Shown here: positions 1,290-26,243 of the stretch, piece by piece | How positions within the stretch are numbered: position 1 is the stretch's first letter | Layout of the letters: each line of letters starts with the position of its first letter | IMG/VR virus record: IMGVR_UViG_3300021256_000005 | Length of the DNA: 64,000 nt | Origin: a virus | Direction: 5' to 3' (one strand) | The notes under the pieces: model-generated | The model's input: the letters and a program-made list of their open reading frames with translations, nothing else | The model's database searches: none | What the model was told of the DNA's origin: nothing | Position numbers and translations under genes: made by a program

Positions 1290-3062
1290 CTATCTATATC
1301 GAGTTACCCGTTTCGGCATCCTCATATGAATCAACATTTGTGCTTCTTGTTCTTGCGTCTGCTTACGTATTTTCTTTTTTAATCTAATTTGTTGTGCGAC
1401 ATATAGGTTGTATTGCAAAGAAGAGTAGCGGTCTTTTCGCATACCATTCTTCTCTGTAATTCTAATCTTTTCTCCAACAACCTCATACTCCAAATTTATA
1501 AGTTCGTTAATAAGAGCAGATGTCTGCACATATGGATAAAGACATTTCGCCTTTTGAGCGGGATTCAATTTAGAATATCCCTTTTGATTATTAAAATATT
1601 CCTTCGATTGTAACTCTGTAATTGGTAATGTTAGCTTTTTATTTTGTATTTGCGCCCTCAGAGCAGTAGCAGTATCACTATTAAACGTAGCATTTGCCTT
1701 AATAGACCAAAATGCTTTATTAGCATTTGGCTCTTTACAACGTTCAGCCATAGATTCATCGTTAATACATTTTAATGCCTGATATTCAACGCCTAACTCT
1801 GGATCAAAACGATTAACAGCAATATAATCAGCCACGCCTAATCCAACACCATTCGTATCCATCACCAAATCCGTACAATTGAACCGATAGAATGTACGCA
1901 TAATAATCAAACCTAATTCATCTGTAGTCAGTCCTTCATATGTATCAATCGAAACAATATGATTCATATAATCATAATCTGACACTGGAAGATTACGGTT
2001 AATAATCAGCGCAGATGCATCGTTATCGTGTTTTTTCGAGTTCATCAACGCAATATCGACAGATAAAATACGCCGTTCGTTAAATACTAATTTTGGTAAC
2101 TTAAAGTGCATAGTAGAATAATCATAAGCTTCTAGCGGATAGATAATAGAATCTCGTTCAGTCCGTAACGGTTCAATATCAGAAAACTTAAAGAATGAAC
2201 CATCCGTATCGCTGTACCATAATGAACCCATTTCAATATCAAATGACATCTGATCGAAATCATCTTCGGACATTTCATCTTCAATCTGCTCACGCATCAG
2301 TAATCCTTCTTTAATAGAAAGCTGATATGGCAATGCACAGACAAAATATCTCTTTGTATGATCCAACATATTCTTCACAAAAGAAACAAATCTTTTATAA
2401 GACCAATGGCTTTTATACCATGCACTAGTCGCATACATTTCCATATTACGTTCTTGTAAATGAACGTATTCTGGTTTATCTAAATATAACGGATGACGAG
2501 GATCTGTTAAGAATTTCTTCAATACATTATCTATGATCTTTTTCGCAACCATACGGTATTCATCGACAATCACGATATTGGCACGATTATGTCTGGCATT
2601 ATCATCAGAAGTAACAACTTTAATAGTTGAACCATTTCTCCATTTACAAATTGGTTTATTTACACCAGTGTGTAATTCTTCAATTTCATTACGAATATTG
2701 GCAGAACCCCACGTGTAGTTTTTACAAAATTCTTCATCAATCTTTGTTAAGATTTCCAATGCTTGACCTTTTGTACCAGAAGCAATAACAATCTTCGTGC
2801 CTGGATATAAAATGCATCTACAAATACAGAATAGTGCAAGTAGCCACGATTTACCCTGACCACGTGCCGCCACGTATATCACATGAGTCGAATGCATCAT
2901 TTCATATAAATTTATTTTCTGAAATGTCTTTAACCCAGTGATATTGCAATAATCAACACAAAAACGTTGTGGATTCTCACGGTAAAAAGTACCACGTTCT
3001 GCCACAACATACATCATTTGTTCTACTTTGTCTTGAAATACTTGTTTCGTTGTTTTCGACAA
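1290..3062 (-). CDS. terL: terminase large subunit
   Basis: 590 aa. Walker A VAARGQGKS, Walker B IVIVDEY, C-terminal nuclease-like acidic motifs (SVDIALM, MDTNGVG). Followed by the portal-like ORF. Confidence 0.85.
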   Translation of the reverse strand: MSKTTKQVFQDKVEQMMYVVAERGTFYRENPQRFCVDYCNITGLKTFQKINLYEMMHSTHVIYVAARGQGKSWLLALFCICRCILYPGTKIVIASGTKGQALEILTKIDEEFCKNYTWGSANIRNEIEELHTGVNKPICKWRNGSTIKVVTSDDNARHNRANIVIVDEYRMVAKKIIDNVLKKFLTDPRHPLYLDKPEYVHLQERNMEMYATSAWYKSHWSYKRFVSFVKNMLDHTKRYFVCALPYQLSIKEGLLMREQIEDEMSEDDFDQMSFDIEMGSLWYSDTDGSFFKFSDIEPLRTERDSIIYPLEAYDYSTMHFKLPKLVFNERRILSVDIALMNSKKHDNDASALIINRNLPVSDYDYMNHIVSIDTYEGLTTDELGLIIMRTFYRFNCTDLVMDTNGVGLGVADYIAVNRFDPELGVEYQALKCINDESMAERCKEPNANKAFWSIKANATFNSDTATALRAQIQNKKLTLPITELQSKEYFNNQKGYSKLNPAQKAKCLYPYVQTSALINELINLEYEVVGEKIRITEKNGMRKDRYSSLQYNLYVAQQIRLKKKIRKQTQEQEAQMLIHMRMPKRVTRYR

Positions 3063-3074
3063 TTTATCACCGCC

Positions 3075-4112
3075 TTATTCCTCAAGGTCATGACCAAAGA
3101 TATTGTCAAAAGCAATTTCTGTATCTGATTCACCTTCATATTCTGGTTTTTTCACGGTATACTTTTCTATAAACCGTCTGTACAAGTGAGAGAGTGGATT
3201 TTTAATTTTCAAATTCTCACACATGTGACCACGATAGAACACATCAATATACTGTCCAATACGATCTACATCCTTTAGTTCTGGGTCAATATCTGGACAT
3301 GGACGTTCGGTTTCCCATTTTTGAATCAGAGTACCAAAGGTTTGCGCTTCTGAAAAAGCATCCAACACGTTTTGTTTTGGCGTTAAATTTCCAGAGTTCA
3401 TTAACTCCTGTAAAGTTTTATATAAGTCTTTAGTCGGCAAATCATCTTGATTAGCCTTGCGGATTTTTAACTGTGTTTCAGCAATACTCTGTAACACAAT
3501 TTCCATAGACTTAGTATTACACTCATAGCGGGTACTCCAATCTTTATACTGCTCATATAAAAACTTATAATCTTCTGTAGAGTATCCACGCCCGAAACGT
3601 GCTATGGTGTCTTTTAACTGCTCCTTCGTAAGTCCATACTCACTTAAATTCTGCGTTGTATCACTCGATTGCTCAAAACTCATAGTACGATAATTTGCAT
3701 TTCTTTGTAATATACCTAAATACTGCTCATTAACATACATAACTTTTGTTGGGTCTGAATTGTTTTTAACCATCTCTTGCGCTGATTCATAAATAGAATC
3801 AATAAACGGCAAATCTATTAGTTTTAATCCTTTTTTTAACGTATCAATATTTTCATACTTGATACCAGTTCCAGTATCGGTTGGGATTATAACTTGTTTG
3901 ACGCATTGTTTACAAATAGGCAAAACATTTGATCCCCATTTCTCGCTTTTATAAAAATCAGATTTAGGTTTAAATTCAGCACAGCAATGACAATAAGCTC
4001 CATTTTTCATAGACTCATAAGCTTTACTCAAAGTCTTGTACATCTGTTTTACTTCATTTGGGGTTTTGCCTTTTAGAACGTCAACATCATCAAATGCAGT
4101 AATTTTTTTCAT
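3075..4112 (-). CDS. hypothetical Cys-rich protein (possible small terminase by position only)
   Basis: 345 aa with RBS (aaaaggagaaatagg) upstream of the ATG. CxxC pairs (CHCC...CKQC). Lies immediately upstream of terL. Confidence 0.55.
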   Translation of the reverse strand: MKKITAFDDVDVLKGKTPNEVKQMYKTLSKAYESMKNGAYCHCCAEFKPKSDFYKSEKWGSNVLPICKQCVKQVIIPTDTGTGIKYENIDTLKKGLKLIDLPFIDSIYESAQEMVKNNSDPTKVMYVNEQYLGILQRNANYRTMSFEQSSDTTQNLSEYGLTKEQLKDTIARFGRGYSTEDYKFLYEQYKDWSTRYECNTKSMEIVLQSIAETQLKIRKANQDDLPTKDLYKTLQELMNSGNLTPKQNVLDAFSEAQTFGTLIQKWETERPCPDIDPELKDVDRIGQYIDVFYRGHMCENLKIKNPLSHLYRRFIEKYTVKKPEYEGESDTEIAFDNIFGHDLEE

Positions 4113-4135
4113 CCTATTTCTCCTTTTGACATATT

Positions 4136-4684
4136 AAAACAACTATTGAGTGATATTTCTATCTGCCAATATATATCTTCATACATATTCAGACACGTAG
4201 CATATAACAGCCGAGCAGTCGGGAGCGACCCAACTGCTTTGTTATACCTATAAAACTACGGATAGACTGCTTACTATCACCTTTTACACACCTTTCGGCA
4301 CAAATATCGTTTTGTTTTAGAATGTACTTGTATAAAAAGCCTTGTGCTACTCAGACCAAACTCCAACGTTATACACGCATTTCTGCGCTTCACGGCTCTA
4401 CAGATTATTGATATTCCGCAGGTTTGATACAGTCATCGGCTAAACCCTAACTACGGTTATTGTACACAGTACCGTCTATTGCTCTGTCCGTCTCGTTTGT
4501 TCCTTTGTATGCGACACATATTGACACATATTCTTGATGTTGAGATTCTGTCTCTCCTTGCACAATATCACTATTATGCAACAGCAATAAACACAAGGTA
4601 TACCTCATGCGCTTACTGATCTTCCGAACATTCTCAGCACCGTTGGTTTCACGGCTCTGCACTGAGTTACTCAATAGCTGTTTT
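4136..4684 (-). ncRNA. candidate large structured RNA (alternatively a cos/pac region)
   Basis: 549-nt non-coding stretch whose ends form a 16-bp helix (4136-4151 with 4669-4684). Its single non-Watson-Crick position is G-U only in minus sense. Internal GAAA-tetraloop hairpin at 4375-4388 and an 11-nt repeat ttcacggctct at 4389 and 4648. Confidence 0.35.
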
Positions 4685-4691
4685 AATGTTT

Positions 4692-8235: not shown

Positions 8236-9045
8236 TCAGCTCTCAGAGGAACTTAAAAGAACTTTTTTACACGTTTGCGAACAAAATTGTTTGTTTTTGT
8301 ATGCTTCAAATAAGTGATGGCACACAGGACACTCTTTCAAATTCTTCACTAGTTTATAATGCGCATAATATTGTTTTCCCAAGTTATTAAAGTTCTCAAC
8401 CCAAAATGCAACTGGTTTAGTTGTGTCAAGGTTCAAAATATTTACTTTGAACATATCAAGTTTGTCCACATGCAAGGTTTGTTTCGTCCCACGGTCAACA
8501 GTGCGAATATCATAATTTAACATTCCTTTACCAATCAAATCATTTAAACACTTGAAATACTTGTCAGTGTTAAAGTTGGTTACATCCGCCAACTGTTTCA
8601 GATCAACCGCTAAAATATGAAACCAATACCAATATTTCTCACTGGACAAATAATCGTCCACATGATACTTTTCCATGTGGCAGGTATCAATCCACTTTTT
8701 ATGTACCAATAAAGCGAACAAGACTTTTTCATACTCCCAATTTTTCACTGACCGTATATTTTCCAGTTCGCATTCATAAACAGGCACTTTCACGTTATAG
8801 TCTTTAATGCGAGTAGCAGAAGCAATGAAGCGGTTATAAATCTCAGTTTTATCCTTTACGTCTAAATAACATAATACACCATCACTTAATTCATCAAATT
8901 TATATCTGATTTCTCCCTTCGTGTAATTATTGTTCAACATATAAACAGCAACAGCGGTTAACTCTTGTCTGCTAAACTGTTTTGTTTTTAATTTACCAAT
9001 CTTAAAAATATATTCGCCGTATGTATAATAATTATGAATAATCAA
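8236..9045 (-). CDS. hypothetical protein with C-terminal zinc ribbon
   Basis: 269 aa. C-terminus CPVCHH...CSQTCKK. Overlaps the RNAP gene stop by 4 nt. Confidence 0.6.
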   Translation of the reverse strand: MIIHNYYTYGEYIFKIGKLKTKQFSRQELTAVAVYMLNNNYTKGEIRYKFDELSDGVLCYLDVKDKTEIYNRFIASATRIKDYNVKVPVYECELENIRSVKNWEYEKVLFALLVHKKWIDTCHMEKYHVDDYLSSEKYWYWFHILAVDLKQLADVTNFNTDKYFKCLNDLIGKGMLNYDIRTVDRGTKQTLHVDKLDMFKVNILNLDTTKPVAFWVENFNNLGKQYYAHYKLVKNLKECPVCHHLFEAYKNKQFCSQTCKKVLLSSSES

Positions 9046-11822
9046 ATTTGCACCTCTGTATATTTCTTCCCTAAATACTCTGCACCGCTTTTATCTTCAA
9101 TTACCGCAATATGCCTACCTTCCGGTAGTATGCTCAAAATATCTTCGCCCAACATATCCCAGATGAACGCTTCATCAAAACCGGATGTTTTATTGCCAAA
9201 ATCAATCAGCACGTTAAATAAGTCGTATGTATTAGTTACAAGTTCGTCCAATTTGCCACGATATTCTAAATCGAACATACGTTTGGCATTACTGATAATA
9301 CGGTGAAAATCGTCGTCATTGATATTGTCAAGCAAGTGTCTCACTAATGAGAGATATTTATTATTACAATAGTCACGGTAAATCTCGTAAACAGTGTCGT
9401 AATTATATCTCACTGGTGGCATCCCGTATGACATCAAAACATTTTCTCCCTTGATTTTACGGAACGAAATATTATCCTCAACCCGCTCAAATTTGTGGCA
9501 AAGCTTATTCATAATGCATGGCGAATCCAGAACAGGAGAGAAGTATTCAACACGATTCACGAATTTACGTTCTTCTTTTGTTTTGTTCGGCTTATATTTC
9601 AAGTCGTTGTATTTGATTTGAAATTTTGCCTTACAGATTTTCTGAAAACTTTTCATATGATTTGTATACGATTTATGCAAATTATCATACAGATAAATCA
9701 TAAAGTACGGCTTCTTTGTAATCACCAACGAATTACGTTTGTATTTTGCGTCTATCACCTCTGGACTATCATTTTCTAAATCAATTTTTACACGCTTAAT
9801 CCATTCTTCTGGAAATTCAGGAGATACACCAAGTTTAATTTTATCAATCTCTGCACCAATGATCTCACGCAGTAATTTCAGACGTGTTAAAATGATTCTA
9901 TGTTCTTCTGGTTTGGTATCAGCAGGAAACAAAGGCAACATAGCATTGAGAGATGTGCTATTGTTCGTGATTTGACCTACTAAAGTGTCGAATCCGTCCA
10001 TATCGCAAGCAATCATGTTAGCGTATGTCGGCTTTCGTTTCGGTGCTTTGTCTTTGTCATATGTGATTACATTGTTTTTATAATACGCCCCCTCAATTAG
10101 TTGCTGATTATCAGTTGTAAACGCAATATCACCGTCGAAATCCGAGTCACTATGGCGTATTGTGCTAGTATCATAAATACTATACACGATTCCAGAATAC
10201 AAATACTGAAACCATTGTTCGCATTCATCGTCATCGTACACAGATAAGATATTATGTTCATGCCGATCCACCATAGGACTTCGCATCGCATCTATAGTAT
10301 TTACACCACGGTTCAGCCAAAACTGTGTATATACACAATTAGCAGGAATAAACCCCTGTATTGGCATATTAGAAGCTTGTTGCAGTAGCGGAATAGGATC
10401 AGCCAACTGGAACTGATAATTTCCCTTCGCCCAAACACGACCAAGTTTTGCTTGCTTGAATGATTCCTTAATACTGTGATAAATCTTACGCTGTATGTAT
10501 TCGTCTTTAAGCAAGTCTTGATTTTTCACAATTGCCTTTGTAAATAAACTACCGCAACTATTCATCATATCCTGCCAAGTTTCATCGGCGTGTTTACACC
10601 CAATAGCATACAGATTAGCGTATAACGATTCACCGCTACAGATTTTTTGAAACCATTCAATTGTCGGCTGTATCAACTCGTCTATCGCTTTATCGGACAA
10701 TCCGCAATTCTGAATGTACTGGTAATTCAGTTGAGAATATTCTGCGTCATATTTTTTGTTGTATCTAGCAACACCCCAGTACAGTCCGTATTTGTCATGA
10801 TAGTCAACATACTCACGCACCGATGAATAGTAATCATGCATCTTAAACTGCGACTCTGTGAGTAAAACGTCTATTTCGTCCACATTAAACAATTCGCCGT
10901 AAATACTGCGGATTTCAGTTACCCCACACCGTTCCTTTAAGTATTTACGGAAATCAAACGTCAGCAGATTGCCCTTTACGAATGCCGTCCTAATTACGAA
11001 CTGGCAAGCAGTATATCCAATCCCCATATCCTCAGACCAAAGTTCAGCCATTTCTGGCGTGATTAAACCTTCGCCATCACAGCTGTTCAAAACAACGTCC
11101 ATAGTAGTAGGTTCGACTGTCTTTGTTCCATCCTCATGCTTCACGATATAGTCTATCTTCTGCTGTGGAATAGTAGTTTCAACGTCAGCAATTACGCAAA
11201 TTCGAGGTTTTCTCACCCACAGAACGGAAGAAAACGACAGGGCAAAATACGCTGATAGTTTCGACAGTACAATTTCATCAATCGTACCGTAGAGTCCGCA
11301 GTACAAATGTTCATTGAGTATATCGTAATATTCATCGTTGATAAACGTCACGGTATTACGTCTCATTTGTCCTGCACCACAACAGAACCGAACGTAATGT
11401 TTACCATTGCAGTAGAAGCCGTGTTCCGCTATATGCTTATAGTGTGCCTTATTTACAACTTTGACATTGATAAAATCCGTCAGGTAAGTCATATCGAGTA
11501 GTTTGTCCTTCAACTGTTTAATAGACTTTTTGGTACGCTGATTTGTGTGCTTTGTACGTACTTTATCAATTTGTACCCGCACTTCTTGAATGTCGTTGTA
11601 TAATTCAAGCGGTGTGCGTTTCTCCCCCTGTAAGTCTCTCAGCTTGCGTAATACTAAATTGTCACCAATGGAAACAATTTCTTTATTTTTAACCGCCTTC
11701 TGATAACTGTACTGTCCCAGATCGAATCGTGGCTCAGTTGGTAGTTTCCCACCAACTAAACCTGTCCGATAAATCTTCGTTGTTTTAATTTTTAGTATGT
11801 CGTATAAAATTTGTTTTGGCAT
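9042..11822 (-). CDS. single-subunit two-barrel RNA polymerase, YonO / cellular RdRP-like
   Basis: 926 aa. DFDGD (residues 561-565, nt 10128-10142) matches the Mg-binding loop of multisubunit RNAP beta-prime (NADFDGD) and the DxDGD of YonO/QDE-1. It is preceded by AMRSPMVDRHEH, which resembles the RxP strand of the same barrel. Confidence 0.6.
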   Translation of the reverse strand: MPKQILYDILKIKTTKIYRTGLVGGKLPTEPRFDLGQYSYQKAVKNKEIVSIGDNLVLRKLRDLQGEKRTPLELYNDIQEVRVQIDKVRTKHTNQRTKKSIKQLKDKLLDMTYLTDFINVKVVNKAHYKHIAEHGFYCNGKHYVRFCCGAGQMRRNTVTFINDEYYDILNEHLYCGLYGTIDEIVLSKLSAYFALSFSSVLWVRKPRICVIADVETTIPQQKIDYIVKHEDGTKTVEPTTMDVVLNSCDGEGLITPEMAELWSEDMGIGYTACQFVIRTAFVKGNLLTFDFRKYLKERCGVTEIRSIYGELFNVDEIDVLLTESQFKMHDYYSSVREYVDYHDKYGLYWGVARYNKKYDAEYSQLNYQYIQNCGLSDKAIDELIQPTIEWFQKICSGESLYANLYAIGCKHADETWQDMMNSCGSLFTKAIVKNQDLLKDEYIQRKIYHSIKESFKQAKLGRVWAKGNYQFQLADPIPLLQQASNMPIQGFIPANCVYTQFWLNRGVNTIDAMRSPMVDRHEHNILSVYDDDECEQWFQYLYSGIVYSIYDTSTIRHSDSDFDGDIAFTTDNQQLIEGAYYKNNVITYDKDKAPKRKPTYANMIACDMDGFDTLVGQITNNSTSLNAMLPLFPADTKPEEHRIILTRLKLLREIIGAEIDKIKLGVSPEFPEEWIKRVKIDLENDSPEVIDAKYKRNSLVITKKPYFMIYLYDNLHKSYTNHMKSFQKICKAKFQIKYNDLKYKPNKTKEERKFVNRVEYFSPVLDSPCIMNKLCHKFERVEDNISFRKIKGENVLMSYGMPPVRYNYDTVYEIYRDYCNNKYLSLVRHLLDNINDDDFHRIISNAKRMFDLEYRGKLDELVTNTYDLFNVLIDFGNKTSGFDEAFIWDMLGEDILSILPEGRHIAVIEDKSGAEYLGKKYTEVQI

Positions 11823-11831
11823 ATATTCCTC

Positions 11832-13571
11832 TTAAATAATCCACGCTTCACATTGAATATTGCTAATATTTAATTCGTGTTTAGCACGTGTCATTGCTAC
11901 ATACATAAGTCGTGCTTCGTTTTCTGGTGCGTCACGCCAACTTGGAAACCTATCTGGCTCGCAACCAATAATATACACACGGTCAAATTCCAATCCTTTA
12001 CTGCCATGAATCGTCATAAGAGAAACACCGCTATGATCGGATTTCTTTTTCTTATGATTCATCGTGCTAAATACAATAAAGTTATCAATCGAACTAAACC
12101 GCCACGCCATAGAAGTAAGGTTGAAAATTGAATCTCGTTTATCTTCGACTGATACTGAATCATATCGTTCATCAAGCCACTGATTCACCCTGCACAGTGC
12201 AACAATACTATCAATGATTTTTCCAACCTGCACGTTCCGTTCTTCTTTGGTCTTTAACCGAGAAATTATATTATTGAGTTTCTCTACGTTATCTCTTTCA
12301 AATGCCTTGTCAAACTTGTGGTCAAGTAATGCTTCATACATAGAATAGTTTCGCATGGTGGCTTCTGCCCGCAGATCATCTACCAAACTTGACTTAAAGT
12401 AAGTAGCAGGGTATAAGCGTGATTCTAACAGTTGTTCCAATGCTTCATCATCACTTGTGCGATTAACTAATCTTAATACCGCCATAATACCTTTAATCGG
12501 CTGACGCTCAAAAAACGAATCACTACTATATAGCGTGTAAGGAATGTTCTTATCTTTTAGCAAGGCTTCAAGCGAGTCTACCATTGCGTTGTTACGGTAC
12601 AGAACAGCCGTGTTGTTCAATTCTGCTTCTGACAGCTTCGACAAACGTTCACAAATACTCTCTGCTTCATCCAATGGAGTATCATAAGTGCTTATATTTA
12701 TTTTAGTTTTAGAGCAGTCATTAGCTTTGGCGTAATATTTTACCTTGTCACCCACAAAAGGTTTAATAAAATCATTAGACGCCGTTACTATTGTATCGTT
12801 GGAGCGATAGTTCGTATTCATGTAGATTACGTGATCCGCTTTATTACTGAACTGATAAAACAGCTCAGAATTAGCACCCCGAAACGAATAAATAGATTGT
12901 AAATAATCGCCTACAATGAAGATGTTGTTATCAGGACACATCAATTCCATTAACTTGTACTGAACTACGTTGTTATCCTGCGCTTCATCGTTCAATAAGT
13001 ATTTCCAAGTACGTCCAATATTGTCCGCCTGATATTCCTTTAAGGTAAGCAGTAACCATTCGTCAAAGTCGTACAGATGATGTTTATGACAGTAGTCCTG
13101 ATAATCGCTGTAGTAGTAGCGCATCTGCTTCTCAGAGTATTCGCAATCCTTCTCCTTAAATTCATCGGTTGGATAAATACCCCAGTTTTTCTGATAAGAA
13201 ATCCAAGCACGAATATCTTTGATGTTAATTTTTGGATTGTCTTTCGACCATCTGCGTTTCAGCTGATAATCTTTTGGCATATTGAGAAGATCCTCGTAAC
13301 CGATTTCTTCCAATAAACGCTTGCAGATTGAGTGCATTGTGCCAGTGGTGACGCCGGTAATATTTTTGTCTGCCAGTTTCTTCTTTAGATCATTAGAAGA
13401 AGCAAGAGTGAAAGACAGAGCAACAATGTCATTTGGATTGATGCCTTGTTCAATCATATAGTTAATCCGTTCTACTAATACAGTAGATTTTCCGGAACCC
13501 GCTGAAGCAACCACTTGAACAGAACCGTCAATTGTGTGAATTGCTTCAAGTTGCTGTTTGTTATATTCCAT
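11832..13571 (-). CDS. UvrD/PcrA/Rep-family SF1 DNA helicase
   Basis: Walker A ASAGSGKST, DEAQD, TIHGSKGLEFD, YVAMTRAK. Confidence 0.85.
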   Translation of the reverse strand: MEYNKQQLEAIHTIDGSVQVVASAGSGKSTVLVERINYMIEQGINPNDIVALSFTLASSNDLKKKLADKNITGVTTGTMHSICKRLLEEIGYEDLLNMPKDYQLKRRWSKDNPKINIKDIRAWISYQKNWGIYPTDEFKEKDCEYSEKQMRYYYSDYQDYCHKHHLYDFDEWLLLTLKEYQADNIGRTWKYLLNDEAQDNNVVQYKLMELMCPDNNIFIVGDYLQSIYSFRGANSELFYQFSNKADHVIYMNTNYRSNDTIVTASNDFIKPFVGDKVKYYAKANDCSKTKINISTYDTPLDEAESICERLSKLSEAELNNTAVLYRNNAMVDSLEALLKDKNIPYTLYSSDSFFERQPIKGIMAVLRLVNRTSDDEALEQLLESRLYPATYFKSSLVDDLRAEATMRNYSMYEALLDHKFDKAFERDNVEKLNNIISRLKTKEERNVQVGKIIDSIVALCRVNQWLDERYDSVSVEDKRDSIFNLTSMAWRFSSIDNFIVFSTMNHKKKKSDHSGVSLMTIHGSKGLEFDRVYIIGCEPDRFPSWRDAPENEARLMYVAMTRAKHELNISNIQCEAWII

Positions 13572-13609
13572 ACAGTCTCCTTTTATAAATTTATGTTTGG
13601 TTTAAGAAC

Positions 13610-13638
13610 AGTATAATCCGGAATGGGGTTAAAGTCAA
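13610..13638 (-). promoter_or_regulatory. sigma70-type promoter for the helicase/RNAP operon
   Basis: Minus sense TTGACT (13638-13633), 17-nt spacer, TATACT (13615-10), about 40 nt upstream of the helicase ATG. Confidence 0.6.
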
Positions 13639-13662
13639 GAGAAAATAAAAATAAATTAAGTA

Positions 13663-13691
13663 TTGACAAAATTAAAAAGTTGTGTTATTTT
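13663..13691 (+). promoter_or_regulatory. weak candidate rightward promoter into the hub
   Basis: TTGACA (13663-68), 17-nt spacer ending TGT, then TATTTT. The extended -10 TG is present but the -10 hexamer is poor. Confidence 0.25.
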
Positions 13692-13787
13692 ATTATAATA
13701 TATATATATTAATTATATATTATATATATTTATATATTAATTATATATAAATTATATATTATTAATATAATATTATTACGTTTTATT

Positions 13788-13877
13788 CGGCAGTCGTGTC
13801 AACGACTGACGATAGCGTGACGTTGCATCGCAACGGAACGCGCCCCGCCGACAGGCGGCGTTGCCGACAGGCAACTG
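13788..13877. repeat. GC-rich palindrome island 1 (four adjacent hairpins)
   Basis: Hairpins at 13791-13808, 13815-13841, 13845-13858 and 13861-13874. The last two share a GACA loop. Confidence 0.85.
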
Positions 13878-13962
13878 TATAATAGTATTATATATATTTA
13901 TATTATATATAATATATATTATATTTATATATATATATATATTATATATTTATATTACATAC

Positions 13963-14038
13963 ACTTAGACAGCTACGCCAGTAGCTGGCTAACGGTGCTG
14001 GTATTGCGTAGCAATGCCTGCGCCGAAGCGTCGCAGAC
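13963..14038. repeat. GC-rich palindrome island 2 (three hairpins)
   Basis: cagctac-gcca-gtagctg 13970-13987; attgc-gta-gcaat 14003-14015; ctgcg...cgcag 14018-14036. Confidence 0.8.
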
Positions 14039-14055
14039 ATATATATTATATATAT

Positions 14056-14099
<44 letters not shown>

Positions 14100-14389
14100 T
14101 ATACAATAAGATAATATATTTGTCAAGTATAAAATTATAATTATTTTAATAATATATTTAATTAAATATATTTAAGTATTATATTATATACTATATATTT
14201 AGTTAAATATATTTAAGTATTATTATAATATATAATTATTTATATATTATTATATATCACTGTATATTATTATATAATAATTAAGCACCATAGTTATTAT
14301 ATATTATATATTACTAATTACATACATCATCAATTACATACATTACTAATTACCAGAGTTATTATTTTATTATTGTTTATTGTTTATAT

Positions 14390-14462
14390 ACTTTTGGCTC
14401 CTTTTGCTAACGCAAAAGATCACCAAAAGTTCGTATTCCTTCGCAAGCGAAGAAATACGAGT
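14390..14462. repeat. GC-rich palindrome island 3 (nested hairpin plus 30-nt palindrome)
   Basis: acttttgg/ccaaaagt encloses ttttgc-taac-gcaaaa (14390-14430). A near-perfect palindrome spans 14431-14460. Confidence 0.8.
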
Positions 14463-15950
14463 GTAATATATATAAATAAATATATTATTATATTTATATT
14501 ATTATATATTTATTATATATTATTATATTATATATTTATTATTATTTATATTATTATATATCTATTATTCTGCTGAGTTATATTATATTAAACAGTGTGG
14601 TTGCTATATATTATTATTTATTAAATATTTTATCTATTACTTTATCTATCGTTTGTATTATTCATTCACACTATTGAATTGTTATTATATACCCATACAA
14701 CAACACACAGTCATTTTGTGCGCTGTTTTATATATGCAGTTTAATAAGTTTACCCTAAATTATTAAAACGTCTGTATAAGCCTAATAGATATGTTATTTG
14801 AGGTGTGCCTTTTTTGGCGGGTTCTATTTTGTTGCGTGCTAGTTCCTGAGCTGTTTAGTTTATTATTTAATCGCTGTTATTTGCGCCGCCAAATTATATA
14901 TACCAAACGTCCTGTATTTTTAGCGTGTTTGTATTTGTTTGGTTGCCTATTTAGTTTAGTGTTCTGTAAGATGAGACAGTAAACTATTTGGATGTTATAT
15001 TTAGTTATATATTATATTATATATTTATATATTATTGACTGTCCAATTATTTTTCTGCGCCTTGTATCTTTGTCGGCTTTGTTTTATATTATTACTACAG
15101 TATTTTATAGAACCGCTTGTCTGAAACATGCCTATATCTACACCTATTGATTGTACGCATGTTTTTATGACACCACCCTATAACTTTTACGTCTGAGAAT
15201 AAAAACGTCTATATGAGCGTTTTAGAGCATTGTATAATACATTGATGATTGTCTATGTGTTTTGTTTAGTTAAATAAATTTAATTAAATTTCTTTAAGTA
15301 TTTATTGGTGCGCCACTAGAAATATAGGCAGTATTTGACTGCTTTGTTTTGCGATGGTAAACTGTATTAAATAATTATTTGCGTGTTTTATTACCGCCTG
15401 CGAAATAGAATAATGTATATTTATTCATTGTTTATACATTTTGACTTGTTTGGTTGTTAATTTTTGCGGCTGTAATTTTTGGTTGTAGCCGTTAATGTTT
15501 GCGATGGTCTGTTTAATGTGTAAATATACCCCGCCTGTTTATTAAGTATGAGATCGCTGTTGGAGTACTTTTTTAATGTGTTTTGTATGTTATTTAGCTG
15601 AAAGATAGTTAAGCCATTAAGCAGTCAATTAGTTTAGATGATTGTTTTATGTTTGATTGAACAGAGCAATAGTGGTTGTTTCGTATTATTATATAGCACT
15701 TAAATGATTGCTATTGTTTTGCTGATGGTTTATTCTGCGTTATTAGACAGCTAATTAGTTGAGCAGATATATGCTAATTTGTCCGCGCTGTAATTAGTTT
15801 ATTTATTGGAGCAGTAAGTGATTTGCTAGTTCTATATTGCAGTTGTTTAGTCAGTGATGTTTGATGTTAAATTAGTTAGGTTCCTAACTAACTAGGTGCT
15901 AAGCCATTTTTGTGGCGACTGAGGGTGTTATTTTATATTAATTATATATA

Positions 15951-16235
15951 GTTACTAATTAGTTACTAGTATTTAGCGGTTGATAATATAGTGCAGGACA
16001 ATTGCCTAATTTATATGGTTACTTATTGGTTACTAATTATGTTGTTGTTTTATGCAGTGAGTGGATTCTATTAGGCGATTGAGAAGTTGATTCTGGCAGT
16101 TAATTATTATTGAATTAAGCCGCTGAATTACTTTATTTGATTGTTGTTTTGGAAGGTGTTATTTTGTGTTGATTCGAAATTATTAGGACGTGATGTAACT
16201 AATTGTAGTTACTAATTGGTTATTAGTTACTTATT
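15951..16235 (+). repeat. iteron-like direct repeats GTTACTAATT / GTTACTTATT
   Basis: GTTACTAATT at 15951, 16029 and 16208. GTTACTTATT at 16018 and 16226. Further variants (gttactag 15962, gtaactaatt 16195). All on the same strand. Confidence 0.7.
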
Positions 16236-17217
16236 AGGTATTAAGTATGTTGTTAGTTATTTATTAGTTACGTTGCGATTTATTTAGTTGCTTCTTAATT
16301 TATTTATGTTTTGTAATATTACTTATTCTGCGACTGATTAAGTATTGGGAAATTCATTAATCTACTGATTTTGTTATGGTTTCTAAGATATCTTCTGACG
16401 TAAAATTGGTTTTGATTAATAGTTAAATATATTTAATTATTTAGTTGAGTAGTTTTACGATTGCTGTATTGATCTGATTGTAGTTGGTAAGAAGTAATAT
16501 TATTGGCTGTTAGAACTATATGGTATTAGCAGAGTATATGATTGTTGTAGTTTAGTGGTTAATTTGTTGTGTTGTTTAATTATTAAACAGTGATTTATTT
16601 AGTAGCGAGCAACAATAAGTAATAAGTTTTTAGTTAGAGTGTTAATTAGTTGTAGTGCTGATTGAACACTGATGGTTTAGTAGTGATTTATTAGAGTGAT
16701 GATTGATTTATTTATGTTTTGGTAAATTTATTTGGTTTTTGTAAATAATTTTAGGTAGATATATTTAATTATTATTTATAATGACTGAGTTGGCAAGTTA
16801 TGAATGTTACTTGAAGTATTCAATTCATTTTAATAAGCCTGAGATTTTCTTGTGTCGATTTAACTTATTGAGAGTAGTTTTATAGGACGCAATTCTGATG
16901 GAACAGTTTAACAATAAGGCTACTTGATCGTTTAATTAATTAGTTAGTTATTAGGTTTTTAGTTTTTTAGAGATTGATTTAGTGGATAGTTATTTATTAA
17001 TGCGGGATTTGGTGAGTAGAACTTTTATTTAGTGAATGTGGCAGTTTGATAAGTAGGTGATGGTATAGGTTGTTAGTTAGTAATGTTGATTGGTGGTAGT
17101 GTTTATAGATTAGTGGTTATTTAGTGAATTAGTTAGTGATTGTTGCTGATGTTGATTGGTTGATAGTGTATTAGTTATGATGTTTGTTTGATTGATAGGT
17201 GTGATGGCTGTTTGTGG

Positions 17218-17384
17218 GTGAGTGAGTTATTTGGTAATTTTATTTGATTTTTTTGTAATTAGTTTTTGTTAGTTTCTTTAATAGTGAGTTATTTATTTGG
17301 TGAGTTTGTTGGATTTTTGGAATGTTAGTGAGTTTTTAGTGAGTTGGGAAGTGAGAAGGGTGAGATTTTGACGGGGTGTGTGAG
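17218..17384 (+). repeat. GTGAG direct-repeat array
   Basis: GTGAG at 17218, 17222, 17284, 17300, 17328, 17339, 17351, 17360 and 17380. The 17328-17360 group is spaced 9-12 nt apart. Confidence 0.75.
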
Positions 17385-17416
17385 TTTACCTCCATATAGC
17401 TATTTTAGCTTTACAC

Positions 17417-17503
17417 TTTTGTCAAAATGTATAAATAACCCCCTTTTGACGTCGGATAATAAAAATTACCCGACATGGCACTTTTTTGACATTTATGTCA
17501 AAA
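17417..17503. promoter_or_regulatory. operator-like TTTTGAC half-sites and palindrome
   Basis: ttttgtcaaaa 17417-27, ttttgac 17444-50, and the 20-nt palindrome ttttgacatttatgtcaaaa at 17484-17503. Confidence 0.5.
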
Positions 17504-17624
17504 ACTTAATAGTTAAATTTTTTTAACTAATTTTTTAATTATATATTATATATTATGCATAATATATTATATATCATATATTATATAAAATTATATTTGA
17601 CACAATATAAATTTCCAGAGCAAC

Positions 17625-17724
17625 AAAATACTTAAAAATCTTTAACCATTCCCATCCCATCAAAAATACTTAAAATAATTTAACTATTATTTTTGCTCTA
17701 AAAATACTTAAAAATTTTTAACTA
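17625..17724 (+). repeat. three 24-nt direct repeats at exact 38-bp phasing
   Basis: aaaatacttaaaa(t/a)-n-tttaac(c/t)a starts at 17625, 17663 and 17701, 100-200 bp upstream of the consensus promoter. Confidence 0.8.
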
Positions 17725-17821
17725 TCTCACCAGAACAAAAAATATATTTCATCAAATATAATTTGATACAACGTTATGCTGCACGTCACCAAACAAAAAA
17801 TAAATTTTTTCCAAAAACCTA

Positions 17822-17850
17822 TTGACACAACGCGATACTAGTGCTATACT
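17822..17850 (+). promoter_or_regulatory. near-consensus sigma70-type promoter
   Basis: TTGACA (17822-27), 17-nt spacer, TATACT (17845-50). First strong rightward promoter before the plus-strand arm. Confidence 0.75.
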
Positions 17851-17856
17851 ATAGTC

Positions 17857-18440
17857 AAGATAAAGATATAACTTATTTATCTTATCGTTCGGGCACTCTG
17901 CCCGCCCACCGCTATCACAGCGGGCGTACCTTGACAAGTTACCTGTTGGTAACTCATAAGATAGGAGAACACCGTGACGGGTGAACTCTGCCTATCGTTA
18001 GTTTGATAATTCTAACGCCTAAAAATTATCAGCCTATCTATAGGCGTAGTTTGCATACCCATGATAGGTTTACTATGAAATCGGCAACTGAAACCGTAGT
18101 TATGATAGAGTCGTTTAGACTCAAGTAGTCGGGTACAAGCCGAGTAGTAAATTGGGATTCATGGCAGACAAACTACAGCTATAGACAGGTGACTTACCCT
18201 TTGTATATGTGAGGGTGTCGGGCTTTTCGGGTGTCCCATCAATACATCCAGGACGAAAATCATATACCGAACAAAATTGTCAACCGACGTGCCAGGGGTT
18301 GAATGTTTGCGGACTCAGTGCGCTTAAATAGCAGATAAATTTACACCGCAACATTGGCCGCCTGGTATGTCGTTACCTTGTAAGTTGCTTTAATTGCATG
18401 AGTTTATCGTGCAATTAACGCAACTTATAAAGCGCAATAA
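17857..18440 (+). ncRNA. candidate ~590-nt structured leader or large ncRNA
   Basis: No ORF. GC content is higher than the surroundings. Many local helices: 17891-17903, 17909-17923, 17937-17954, 17960-17996, 18108-18122. An H-type pseudoknot arrangement lies at 18005-18046. A 17-bp terminal hairpin lies at 18381-18427. Confidence 0.4.
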
Positions 18441-18454
18441 AAAAGGAGAAAACT

Positions 18455-19030
18455 ATGTTAAAATTTAATCAGATTTCAAACGGCTTTATTGACAAGACAG
18501 CAAAGGAAAACAAGGCGGGCATTACCCGCATAATTAACTACGGCGTATCCCTCGTTGATCACGCCGAGAAACTTCTGTCTTTGCAGGAAGAAAAGAAGGA
18601 AGCAGAAAACAATCTGAATTCTGCTTCTGAAAAGTTAGACGGCACAATCTCCATTGACGAACGTGCCGCAACTCTGTTATCGTATCGGCTGAAAGTTAAC
18701 GCAGTCAGTGAGAAGATTAAAGCAGAAAACAAAAGTTTTCGCTCGAAATCAAAGGTATTCACCGATGCCTTCAAGACGTCTGAATTATATCAGGCGTACA
18801 AAGAGTTTGACGGAACTGGAAACAGTTACCTTGATGCCATGTCAACGTTTCTTGATTTAGTCGGTATTGTACCGACTAAAAAAACTGTCAAAAAACTTTG
18901 CCGTCTTGCTGGTGGCTCAGTAACTACTGGCAATAAAGAAATAATAAATTGCCAATTCACAAAACGCCTGTCTAAAAAGGCGTTTGAAACTTTAATCATT
19001 AGATTGCTGTGTGAAGAGTTCGCACAATAA
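18455..19030 (+). CDS. hypothetical protein (coiled-coil-like)
   Basis: 191 aa, strong RBS aaaaaggagaaaactATG, first gene of the plus arm. Confidence 0.7.
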   Translation: MLKFNQISNGFIDKTAKENKAGITRIINYGVSLVDHAEKLLSLQEEKKEAENNLNSASEKLDGTISIDERAATLLSYRLKVNAVSEKIKAENKSFRSKSKVFTDAFKTSELYQAYKEFDGTGNSYLDAMSTFLDLVGIVPTKKTVKKLCRLAGGSVTTGNKEIINCQFTKRLSKKAFETLIIRLLCEEFAQ

Positions 19031-19046
19031 TTAGAAGGAGGAAATT

Positions 19047-24102: not shown

Positions 24103-25263
24103 ATGTTAACATTTGAAAGAAATTACACTGACAAAACTGCAAAGAGCATCGCTAAAATGATTAACGGAAACCGCACAGAAATGACGTTTGATAACTGCGT
24201 TCAGCGGAACTATGTGTGGAAAATTGAACAGCAGTCAATGTTAATTGATTCAATTTTACGTGGGTATCCTGTGCCAGACATTTACGCAAACCGCACAGAA
24301 GCTCATACAGAAAAAGGCACAAAATACTATGTCTATGATGTGTTGGATGGTCAGCAGAGATTAACTACAATTGCTCGATTCGTGGCAGGCAAATTCGCAT
24401 TGAAAGGACTGCCTGAGTTCGAGGATGAAGAAGGCAACAGTGTTGATCTGAATGATTGCTACTATGACGATCTTGACGAGAATTACAAAGAGGTACTGAA
24501 CAACTTTACATTCCGCATCCAGTATTATGACAACATGGATGATGAATCGGTTGCTGAGATTTTCCGTAGGCTGAATAACGGGAAGTCGTTAACCAACATT
24601 GAAAAGATTCGTGTTTATGCGAAATCGTTTGATACGATTCGAGAATTAGCAAATCACCCGATTTTCAATATTGGCGAGATGATGACCGAAGCATCCCGCA
24701 GAGGTTATCACAATGAAGATATGGTGATTAAATTATTCATGATTCTTCATGACGACACTAATCTTGACGCAAAACACGTGAAAGAAGTTCTTGCTAATGC
24801 TGAGTTTACTGAACAGGATGTTACGCAGATCAAAACAATTTTAGATTATGCACGGAAGATTCATGACACAATTTTAGCCGATGATACAGATTTGAAATTA
24901 AATAAGAAAATCGCTAAACGGATGTATGGCAAGGTGCATTTTGTATCACTTATTCCGCTGTTCATGGAGACGATTGAAAATGGAATGCCTGATAGTTCTG
25001 TAGTTGAATTTTTACAGGTGTTCTACGGTAGCAAAACAGCTTCTATTAGCACTCGTTACAATGGATGCAGTCATAGCGGAAGTAACCATAAATCTTCCGT
25101 GGATACCCGCATTGCTGAGGTAAAAAAGGCGTGGGAAGAATTTGAGCCAATGAAAGTAAAAGAGGACTCCGAAGTAGGTACTGAGTCTGTAGAGGACGTA
25201 GAACAGGAAGAAATCTCTGATTCTATAGTGGACGATCTTCTTGCCGATTTAGCAAACGAGTAA
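24103..25263 (+). CDS. DUF262 (ParB-like nuclease / GmrSD N-terminal domain) protein with an acidic tail
   Basis: VQRNYVW...LIDSILRGYPVP and DGQQRLTTI motifs. No DUF1524/HNH half. The C-terminal 40 aa are strongly acidic. Confidence 0.75.
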   Translation: MLTFERNYTDKTAKSIAKMINGNRTEMTFDNCVQRNYVWKIEQQSMLIDSILRGYPVPDIYANRTEAHTEKGTKYYVYDVLDGQQRLTTIARFVAGKFALKGLPEFEDEEGNSVDLNDCYYDDLDENYKEVLNNFTFRIQYYDNMDDESVAEIFRRLNNGKSLTNIEKIRVYAKSFDTIRELANHPIFNIGEMMTEASRRGYHNEDMVIKLFMILHDDTNLDAKHVKEVLANAEFTEQDVTQIKTILDYARKIHDTILADDTDLKLNKKIAKRMYGKVHFVSLIPLFMETIENGMPDSSVVEFLQVFYGSKTASISTRYNGCSHSGSNHKSSVDTRIAEVKKAWEEFEPMKVKEDSEVGTESVEDVEQEEISDSIVDDLLADLANE

Positions 25264-25355: not shown

Positions 25356-26243
25356 ATGGCAAATGTGTATGAAATTGTAACAAACAACATTATCGAGGAA
25401 ATGAAAAAAGGAATCATCCCTTGGAAAAAGCCGTGGACAAATGAAATCTATGTTGACGCAAATGGCAACCGCAGACCGTTTGGAGCCTACAATAGAATTA
25501 CGAGACAGCCATACCACGGGATTAACCGTTTGTTATTACCGCTCGAAGGTGAGTATGCAACATTCAAACAGTGGCAGAAATTAGGTGGCAAAATTAAAAG
25601 AGGTGAACATGGACACATGGTAGTTTATTACAAAATCATGTCACCGATGAAAGACGATACAGAAGAAGAAGCAGAAATTAAAAAAGGATTCCCACTGTTA
25701 AGATATTACACTGTATTCCATGTATCACAGGTAGAAGGCGTTGAGCCTGTAAAGTGGCGCAAATTATCTGTGCAGGAAGAAACATTGAGCGGTGACGAGG
25801 TGGAAGAAAACGCAGATAAGGTACTGAATGATTATTATAAGCGTGAAGCCATTACAGTAACTGAGATCAATGGAGATAGAGCATTTTACAGACCCATGAC
25901 AGATTCGATTTGTTTGCCTGAAAAATCTCAGTTCAAAGAGTTGAGTGAATATTACAGCACGAAAATTCATGAAACTGTGCATAGTACAGGACATACAAAA
26001 AGGCTAAATAGGTTTGAACCTGGCGGATTTGGTAGTGAATCGTATAGCAAAGAAGAATTGGTTGCAGAAATTGGTTCTGCTATTTTGATGAACATATTAG
26101 GAATTGATACAGAATCCACATTCAAAAATTCAGTTGCTTATTTACAGAGTTGGATTTCTGTATTGCAGAATAATCCGAAGTGGATTGTACAGGCGAGTAG
26201 CAAAGCAGAAAAAGCAATTAAGCTGATTACAGGGGAGGAATAA
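25356..26243 (+). CDS. ardC: ArdC-like antirestriction protein (ssDNA-binding N-domain plus HExxH metalloprotease)
   Basis: GIIPWKKPW...YHGINRLLL...FKQWQKLGGKIKRGEHG, then YYSTKIHETVHSTGHTKRLNR. Confidence 0.8.
   Translation: MANVYEIVTNNIIEEMKKGIIPWKKPWTNEIYVDANGNRRPFGAYNRITRQPYHGINRLLLPLEGEYATFKQWQKLGGKIKRGEHGHMVVYYKIMSPMKDDTEEEAEIKKGFPLLRYYTVFHVSQVEGVEPVKWRKLSVQEETLSGDEVEENADKVLNDYYKREAITVTEINGDRAFYRPMTDSICLPEKSQFKELSEYYSTKIHETVHSTGHTKRLNRFEPGGFGSESYSKEELVAEIGSAILMNILGIDTESTFKNSVAYLQSWISVLQNNPKWIVQASSKAEKAIKLITGEE

Follow-up and report, generated by a model that had tools for sequence, protein, structure and literature searches.

A strand-asymmetric non-coding block in an SPbeta-like phage genome as a probable flank of a packaging-initiation region

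Results

The 64,000-nt viral sequence IMGVR_UViG_3300021256_000005 (the window, i.e. the whole stretch of DNA that was analysed) contains at 14580-17384 a block in which the plus strand becomes almost free of C. The block lies within a 4.2-kb gap without open reading frames (ORFs) between a leftward late operon and a divergent, rightward early operon, and the gene order of the window is that of the Bacillus prophage SPbeta. We find that the block is one arm of a non-coding arm-core-arm structure and that structures of this layout, with the same polarity, coincide with mapped packaging starts or terminal repeats in four related lineages. The initial annotation of the block, which was made from the sequence alone, missed this layout and with it the best explanatory context. 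The structure and the spacer beside it consist of the following parts:

14580-17384, no strand assigned: long strand-asymmetric arm, non-coding; the plus strand is T-rich, has G in place of C from about 15300 and runs 5' to 3' toward the core
16921-17384, plus strand: inner arm, with 8 C in 451 nt, almost no single-strand folding and almost no G/C-containing palindromes
17284-17384, plus strand: sequence-conserved arm tip (90-93% identity to the related contig L132 over 17284-17402)
17385-17620, no strand assigned: core of about 235 bp, balanced in composition and rich in inverted repeats (DNA fold z = -5.0)
17621-17800, no strand assigned: short opposite arm; the plus strand is rich in C and A and poor in G, with 9 G over the 201 nt of 17600-17800
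13572-14579, no strand assigned: AT-rich spacer between the long arm and the late operon (G+C 12-23% outside islands; (TA)n-type repeats; DNA fold z = -9.5)

The two arms flank the core with skews of +0.94 and -0.73 and share one polarity: the strand that heads 5' to 3' into the core is the C-poor one, which is the minus strand in the short arm. The inverted repeats of the core include TTTTTTGACATTTATGTCAAAAAC and TATATTATATA repeats, the latter at 17538-17597. In addition, three 38-nt direct repeats (AAAATACTTAAAAATNTTTAACYAT) lie at 17625-17725, in the short arm just upstream of the early promoter, and could be operator or regulator sites.

An exact count over 14580-17384 gives 734 A, 242 C, 573 G and 1256 T. 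The C counts of the initial annotation were reproduced exactly (41 in 16381-17371, eight in 16921-17371 and none in 17281-17371), as were the 21 G versus one C in 17161-17220 and the abrupt end of the C-poor run, with C returning at 17372 and then at 17389, 17390, 17392 and 17393. The lowest C count per 450-nt stretch in all 64 kb, seven, is found at 16930 (median 66; 0.1 percentile 12), and there is no second region with comparable C depletion in the window. GC skew in 300-nt windows peaks at +0.89 to +0.94 within the block; the profile rises from about 0 at 15000-15300 to +0.89 at 16950-17250 and turns to -0.43 to -0.53 at 17400-17850. The skew had been ascribed to the whole of 14580-17384 but holds only from about 15300 rightward: from 14580 to about 15150 GC skew is near 0, and the leftmost 700 nt of the block are T-rich (AT skew -0.24 to -0.31) and not depleted in C. 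Along the block, C falls from 13.5% through 9.5% to 4.2%. Because G climbs as C drops (from 14.7% through 20.6% to 24.3%), with T (45%), A (26%) and G+C (28-31%) constant, this gradient is a G-for-C swap and no simple C-to-T decay. The dinucleotide TC is depleted in the block 0.4-0.6-fold; a deaminase-like TC-context signature was rejected since the unskewed AT-rich spacer, in which C is clustered in GC islands, is equally TC-depleted.

The absence of ORFs of 60 or more amino acids from 14983-17343 was reproduced with genetic code table 11. An alternative genetic code does not rescue an ORF, given that the plus strand is composed almost entirely of stop-codon letters and that the minus sense is nearly G-free and thus nearly devoid of start codons. 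G/C-containing palindromes are few, as had been predicted, with four four-base and one six-base sites in 16381-17384 versus 22.8 and 5.5 in the background; GATC, however, occurs at 15552 in addition to the two sites at 16471 and 16926 that had been taken to be the only ones. The DNA minimum free energy (MFE) is 0.0 for 17001-17200 and about -1 kcal/mol (-0.8) for 17201-17400, per 200 nt, versus -15.2 +/- 4.1 in the background. The minus-strand sense of 16921-17371 contains 1.8% G and 28% C. A non-folding leftward RNA had been proposed, of which the low folding potential holds for either strand but transcription toward the left lacks promoter support.

Several short words are enriched in the long arm. 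AATTAGTT is present in nine copies versus 0.3 expected, 18 of the window's 24 plus-strand copies of TTAGT[TG]A lie inside the block, and GTGAG occurs there 11 times on the plus strand and never on the minus strand. Nine of these GTGAG copies fall within 17218-17384, clustered in the arm tip and just left of it, with spacings of about 9-12 nt at 17328, 17339, 17351 and 17360. No dominant tandem unit was found in the long arm, in which Tandem Repeats Finder gives short local arrays of 2-5 copies with differing units. Across seven arms, no 10-11-nt helical periodicity of G, GG, T or AA/TT exceeded the 95th percentile of shuffles; the lone periodicity above this level is a 17-nt period of G in 14580-16000.

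A close relative of the window phage is represented by two contigs from one sample, L001 (11.9 kb of the late-gene side, 94% DNA identity to the window) and L132, the alignment of which covers window positions 16159-19043; the early-side flanking protein is 84% identical in this relative. The skew is kept in L132, and similar blocks lie beside mapped packaging sites of related phages. The L132 arm has the gradient of the window arm and peaks at +0.90 to +0.91 beside the core. The two arms differ by many indels and match unevenly, with 28-95% identity depending on the 60-column segment, and about 22 of about 55 C positions have changed versus 18% overall. By comparison, 17284-17635 is 90-100% identical and the core 92-100% identical to L132, versus 78% for the adjoining coding sequence. 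In five Enterocloster phages, 104 of the 204 columns of the inner G arm vary, with at least 114 substitutions, yet C accounts for seven of 955 letters; likewise, the inner C arm has at least 98 substitutions and G accounts for two of 828 letters. Conservation across the region is lowest in these innermost arms (24-75% pairwise identity), and the core between them is compositionally balanced. Because many substitutions have accumulated with C or G remaining nearly absent, we conclude that the arms are constrained in composition and free in sequence. In the core and the arm tips, it is the sequence that is constrained.

Two candidates for a conserved core signature were discarded. Five of the window's 19 copies of TTTTGAC lie within 17366-17503, but three of these five heptamers are mutated in L132 and only the palindrome is kept. 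An exact 20-mer of the core palindrome, tried as a finder of relatives, matched nine viral contigs and 27 metagenome contigs, all by chance and without similarity to the window.

To place the block, we compared it with phages that were all retrieved via their YonO-like RNA polymerase or their terminase. In SPbeta, the point at which the genome is opened was placed between yonR and yonP by restriction analysis and read mapping (10.1101/2021.11.22.469490; PMC8270828). A 250-bp pac (packaging site) fragment, described as rich in inverted repeats, was reported by Kohm et al. (supplement 11), and according to the authors packaging starts at position 251 and runs counter-clockwise. We find that this fragment corresponds to positions 3032-3282 of the SPbeta locus L094 and that it precisely fills the space that separates a G-rich arm (skew +0.70) from a C-rich arm (-0.46). 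The gene layout is yonO/yonP on the minus strand, the gap, and yonR on the plus strand, so that packaging proceeds from the early-side core edge through the core and the G-rich arm toward yonP/yonO; a precise 250-bp over-covered block is present at the site. Base 1 of the virion-derived genome of BUCT082 is the SPbeta packaging start point and is followed by the core and a C arm (-0.7); its last 300 nt form a G/T-rich arm (+0.6 to +0.83) in which GTGAGT-type words occur, as they do in the window. The record of BUCT083 begins at the opposite core edge. In phi3T-like Bacillus prophages, our measure of the G-to-C flip is 1.5-1.6 versus 1.67 for the window, and the flip lies about 4 kb upstream of the RNA polymerase gene, in the region that is the yonP-yonR gap of SPbeta.

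For the Enterocloster phage PMBT24, PhageTerm called a pac-type mechanism and the authors took the pac site as base 1 (PMC11035940). The end of this record is the exact inner end of a C-free arm (3.6% C), and its start is a core of about 360 nt followed by a G-free arm (2.8% G). A skew scan of the fetched loci detected on the plus strand of CB457P1 a 380-nt arm at 2.9% C and a 360-nt arm at 3.0% G, about 350 nt apart. The Enterocloster arms contain 43% G and 46% G+C in a genome of 32% G+C. Many tiny coding sequences for hypothetical proteins are annotated in or beside arms and core in the GenBank records (PMBT24, L010 2762-3856 and L011 608-998; CB457P1, L009 11544-11714; CB473P1, L136 1248-1412) and are probably annotation artefacts of non-coding packaging-site DNA. 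In c-st, an annotated 404-bp terminal direct repeat has flanks of the same polarity that are weak (+0.4 and -0.6 over 150-400 nt). In phiCD211, which has a related terminase (37%), the sequence of the genome ends (NC_029048.2; L140/L141) confirmed a 378-bp direct terminal repeat.

Other searches did not extend this set. Megablast against GenBank phage DNA gave no match to the block and the helicase/RNA polymerase region, and a helicase-based locus search in IMG/VR found no relatives. Helicase homologues with 43-47% identity (L002, L003) are uninformative, since they lack a gap of this kind and numerous small genes on the same strand lie upstream of them. RNA polymerase relatives at 46% identity (L015-L030, L044, L046, L070) were rejected as further examples, their C-poor stretches being AT-rich coding genes. 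Two of these loci have a one-sided C-rich and G-poor stretch of about 200 nt (L070 665-860 and L046 226-450; CCCAC, CTCAC and CCATC words) that follows AT-rich genes about 9-10 kb upstream of the RNA polymerase gene; both loci end close by, and the stretch might be a half version of the arm-core-arm element.

The genes and signals around the gap are as follows:

1290-3062, minus strand: large terminase subunit, YonF type (Terminase_6N; 45% identity to SPbeta YonF over 92% of its length)
9042-11822, minus strand: YonO-like single-subunit RNA polymerase (RdRP-type), 25-31% identity to known relatives
11832-13571, minus strand: UvrD-type helicase, left of the gap
13610-13638, minus strand: second consensus sigma-A-type promoter, outside the arm and pointing away from it
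14098-14126, minus strand: sigma-A-type promoter, TTGACA-17-TATAAT (12/12), outside the arm and firing leftward, away from it, to the helicase/RNA polymerase operon
14431-14460, minus strand: terminator-like hairpin with a 13-bp stem at the outer end of the arm; poor T-run, weak evidence
17822-17850, plus strand: near-consensus extended -10 promoter, TTGACA-17-TGnTATACT, outside the short arm and firing away from it into the early genes

Farther left on the minus strand are HU-, YonJ- and YonG-like genes, then the terminase gene; right of the gap, plus-strand genes begin at about 17850, many of them small, and are followed by replication genes including one for a DnaE-type polymerase. Promoter-like matches in the region number 30 versus 36.8 +/- 6.0 in shuffles, and those on the plus strand in or left of the block reach 9/12 only (14589, 14973, 15335, 16079 and 17152). 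There was no Rfam match in 13400-18600, even at E <= 1. The hairpin at 14431-14460 would, on this weak evidence, stop a leftward transcript crossing the arm.

The surroundings contain further features of interest. In the spacer, six GC-rich hairpins in two clusters (13780-13875 and 13960-14040), two of them with GACA loops, stand amid long (TA)n-type repeats and could represent an origin, single-strand initiation signals or small RNAs. Of the public contigs from the window-phage lineage, three independent ones end in the spacer (13755, 13839 and 13871); for this phage, the breaks in public contigs fall in the (TA)n spacer at 13755-13871 or elsewhere, and none falls at the core. On the early side, an ORF-free, GC-rich leader of about 600 nt (17857-18452, plus strand) separates the promoter at 17822-17850 from the first early gene. 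Its RNA MFE is -206.7 kcal/mol (z = -8.6 versus shuffles), it has no Rfam match at E <= 1, and it is 87% identical in L132 as compared with 78% for the downstream coding sequence; it is a candidate large structured RNA or long structured 5' untranslated region. Proteins with a GmrSD-N domain (24103-25263) and with ArdC-N/MPTase-PolyVal domains (25356-26243) are encoded in the early region beside the replication genes and are candidates for anti-restriction or defence functions. On the late side, the minus strand at 4133-4690 carries a full-length ROOL RNA (Rfam RF03087; 300 bits, E = 5e-68), flanked in the late operon by the YonJ-like and YonG-like genes. For SPbeta, Forrest et al. mention a non-coding RNA without annotation at the point where YonO late transcription starts, and the two situations may be related.

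Discussion

Combining the composition of the block with the comparison to relatives, we suggest, with a probability of roughly 0.7, that the block is the long late-side arm of a strand-asymmetric structure around a packaging-initiation region, either a pac site or a short terminal repeat, since flanks with this strand asymmetry are also present in related phages whose ends have been mapped. The window has the hallmarks of an SPbeta-type site: (i) a gap between a YonO-type RNA polymerase operon and divergent early genes, (ii) a YonF-type terminase, and (iii) an inverted-repeat core between G-rich and C-rich arms. By the same analogy, the core at 17385-17620 is the predicted packaging-initiation or terminal-repeat segment, and the large terminase of the window is the presumed trans-acting partner of the site. 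Given that the strong flanking promoters sit outside the arms and fire away from them, we favor a role at the level of DNA over one at the level of RNA.

Several observations weigh against this interpretation. Skewed flanks were not found at the 378-bp terminal repeat of phiCD211, and those of c-st are only weak; the arms are therefore not obligatory for this terminase family and vary between lineages, and phiCD211 is a useful natural negative control for functional models of the arms. In blastn comparisons (word size 7), the core has no significant match to SPbeta or phi3T and only TATA-type low-complexity matches to PMBT24 and CB473P1. The window arm is 6-20 times longer than the arms of the relatives and G/T-rich, not G/A-rich. 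Since neither a k-mer common to the arms of all lineages nor a 10-11-bp helical period was found, an ordered array of terminase-binding sites is not supported. The connection of the window core to packaging is drawn from analogy and synteny, and the link of the arms to the RNA polymerase or the terminase is inseparable from shared ancestry in a set of relatives retrieved via those genes.

If the block flanks a packaging site as in SPbeta, the terminase would cut or nick at the core edges, at about 17385 and/or about 17600-17625, and packaging would run leftward through the core and the long arm toward the late genes. With packaging in this direction, the C-free strand would be the 3'-ending strand of the new chromosome end. 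The most likely role of the skew, which we propose with lower confidence, is that it supplies the packaging or end-processing machinery with a flank that is strand-polar, non-folding and free of palindromes. With strand-polar flanks, opposite strands could be used for processing the two core edges; a 3' tail, if exposed at one or the other new end, would be non-folding and lack most restriction sites; and the unusual length of 2-2.8 kb could match a terminally redundant segment.

A more specific and more doubtful version, which we consider unlikely as it stands, is that the arms let the strands be told apart when chromosome ends are made, the core being duplicated to a short direct terminal repeat. 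It derives from the mirror polarity of the arms and from the terminus-like character of both core edges, as seen in the start and the over-covered block of SPbeta and in the record ends of BUCT082, BUCT083 and PMBT24, and it agrees with the true terminal repeat of similar size in c-st; from these, the core may be a terminal repeat that is processed on opposite strands. In such a scheme, a nick would be made to either side of the core at the inner 3' end of the C-free strand, which would place the nicks on opposite strands, and strand-displacement synthesis from both nicks would duplicate the core of about 235 bp as a short direct terminal repeat. Each new end would then have a non-folding, G-rich and C-free 3' strand with almost no restriction sites, a telomere-like design in a tailed phage, and the 2-2.8-kb arm would mark a segment that is turned single-stranded for circularization or recombination-dependent replication.

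Two other accounts invoke transcription. In the R-loop origin considered in the initial annotation, a rightward, G-rich and C-free transcript would hybridize to the C-rich template and prime replication beside the AT-rich core repeats. The non-template strand is indeed G-rich and nearly C-free, easily melted AT-rich repeats are available at 17538-17597 and at about 13600-14570, and the location is the point at which two gene blocks diverge. However, the plus-strand promoter matches are weak and promoter-like matches are no commoner than in shuffles, the local G-then-C polarity is that of a replication terminus instead of an origin, SPbeta, BUCT082 and PMBT24 have their mapped packaging start in the equivalent region, and the symmetric second arm has no role in the model; altogether we consider an origin improbable. 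The known R-loop origins, i.e. those of ColE1, T4 oriF/oriG and the mitochondrial conserved sequence blocks, share with the block a G-rich non-template strand beside AT-rich DNA and differ from it in the same respects of promoter, polarity and homologous place. We hold it to be equally improbable that the arms act through outward G-less, C/A-rich and unstructured transcripts, whether as a Rho-loading (rut) leader, as an attenuator or insulator between the operons, or as a protein sponge. A hypothetical leftward RNA of 16921-17371 would fit the composition of a rut site (C-rich, G-poor, unstructured, at least about 80 nt), the hairpin at 14431-14460 could end it, and a weak leftward promoter match (TGGAAA-16-TATAAT, 17617-17590) lies in a stretch that is 97% conserved in L132. 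Yet the core promoter candidates are weak and occur at chance frequency, so that the Rho-loading or sponge idea of the initial annotation, which needs an inward or core promoter, lacks support; in the window as well as in SPbeta, the two flanking operons have their consensus promoters beyond the arms, and no Rfam family matches. The mapped YonO late start of SPbeta is upstream of yonK and not in the yonP-yonR gap (PMC5467207), for which reason the block was also rejected as a YonO late-promoter leader.

The skew could also be a functionless mutational footprint, in which the 3'-ending strand near a recurrent double-strand end is often single-stranded after resection and loses C by deamination, with the greatest loss nearest to the end. 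This would account for a gradient that peaks at the core edge, breaks off sharply at that point and has its mirror image on the opposite side, for the T-richness of the plus strand of the window arm (45-48%), and for the faster turnover of C positions between the window and L132. Deamination would, however, raise T and lower G+C, and both are flat along the block while G goes up as C goes down; the high G content of the Enterocloster arms in a 32% G+C genome calls for G enrichment and not for C loss; and phiCD211 has the same type of end without skew. We therefore give this explanation a low probability. The idea that the arms are arrays of oriented words for a host motor or nuclease, protecting the ends or steering a translocase (Chi for AddAB/RecBCD; SpoIIIE recognition sequences (SRS) for SpoIIIE or FtsK-orienting polar sequences (KOPS) for FtsK), appears very improbable. 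The polarity is that of Chi and of KOPS/SRS near the chromosome terminus, with the G-rich strand running 5' to 3' toward the core on both sides, and the sole window copy of GAGAAGGG, the B. subtilis SRS, is at 17353, with one copy each in the SPbeta and CB457P1 arms. Against this, none of the arms contains the B. subtilis Chi sequence AGCGG, and GAGAAGGG and GGGNAGGG number 0-2 per arm without being conserved in L132, where the window copy of GAGAAGGG reads GAGAGGGG; moreover, no k-mer is enriched in all lineages (z <= 2.9). The proposal that the block is Chi-like or a preferred RecA substrate thus found no oriented Chi-, SRS- or KOPS-like word, enriched or conserved, to build on.

Returning to a packaging-site flank as the preferred interpretation, the window resembles and departs from known systems in a graded manner. 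The yonR-yonP pac region of Spbetavirus (SPbeta, phi3T, Goe11-14, BUCT082/083) is like it in place, in a YonF-type terminase (45%), in a core of about 250 bp with inverted repeats and in arm polarity; however, the arms of these phages are 130-350 bp long and G/A-rich (skew +0.7 to +0.9 and -0.46 to -0.7), whereas the late-side arm of the window is 2-2.8 kb long, G/T-rich and graded. PMBT24, CB457P1/P2 and CB473P1/P3 share the succession of arm, core of about 350 nt and G-free arm, with TATATTATATA-type repeats at the arm borders, but their arms of about 380 nt are 43% G and capable of forming G-quadruplexes, their pac region lies amid same-strand small genes about 9.6 kb from the RNA polymerase gene, and their polymerase is only 25% identical. 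The terminal repeats of c-st and phiCD211 are near the window core in size and come with related late genes and terminase, and the flank polarity is shared by c-st, in which the skew is weak; phiCD211 has none. In the pacL-pacC-pacR region of SPP1 and the hexamer-containing pac site of P1, a cleavage region with flanking sequences on both sides is required for recognition by terminase, and these flanks of about 100-160 bp are defined by specific repeated boxes or bends. To our knowledge they are not noted for an asymmetry of strand composition. In the window, no periodic or cross-lineage box was found; the nine GTGAG copies of 17218-17384 are partly 9-12 nt apart. Kohm and Hertel found no similarity between the pac sites of SPbeta and SPP1. 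The block also resembles eukaryotic telomeric repeats, in which a G-rich, C-poor strand runs 5' to 3' toward the end on both sides and which the enriched TTAG-containing words of the window recall; it differs from them in having no dominant tandem unit and no telomerase, and in ends that are made by cutting concatemers.

The pac site of SPbeta-like phages is already known, but the strand-asymmetric arms around it are not mentioned in the papers that mapped the SPbeta and PMBT24 sites, and a full-text search yielded no report of skewed pac flanks as judged by titles and the openings of abstracts. The statement in the initial annotation that no phage element of this composition has been described therefore agrees with the literature searched, although the same feature sits unremarked in SPbeta. 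Among the phages compared, the window is the most extreme case, with its graded, G/T-rich arm of 2-2.8 kb. If the arms proved to be dispensable, the finding would shrink to an unusual compositional footprint beside a known kind of site, and the idea is genetically testable in B. subtilis with SPbeta or phi3T.

The packaging sites of the SPbeta type in large temperate phages of Firmicutes are poorly defined, the mapped part being a single 250-bp fragment. Here, the composition of the arms appears under strong constraint across phages of Bacillus and Enterocloster and an uncultured gut phage, with one strand without C and the other without G and with the sequence itself free to change. A constraint of this kind points to a recognition or processing step that reads strand composition or single-strand physics and not a sequence motif. 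In practice, a sharp G-to-C skew flip in a non-coding gap can serve to find packaging sites or termini when SPbeta-like genomes are recovered from metagenomes, and it also flags spurious small ORFs annotated within the arms.

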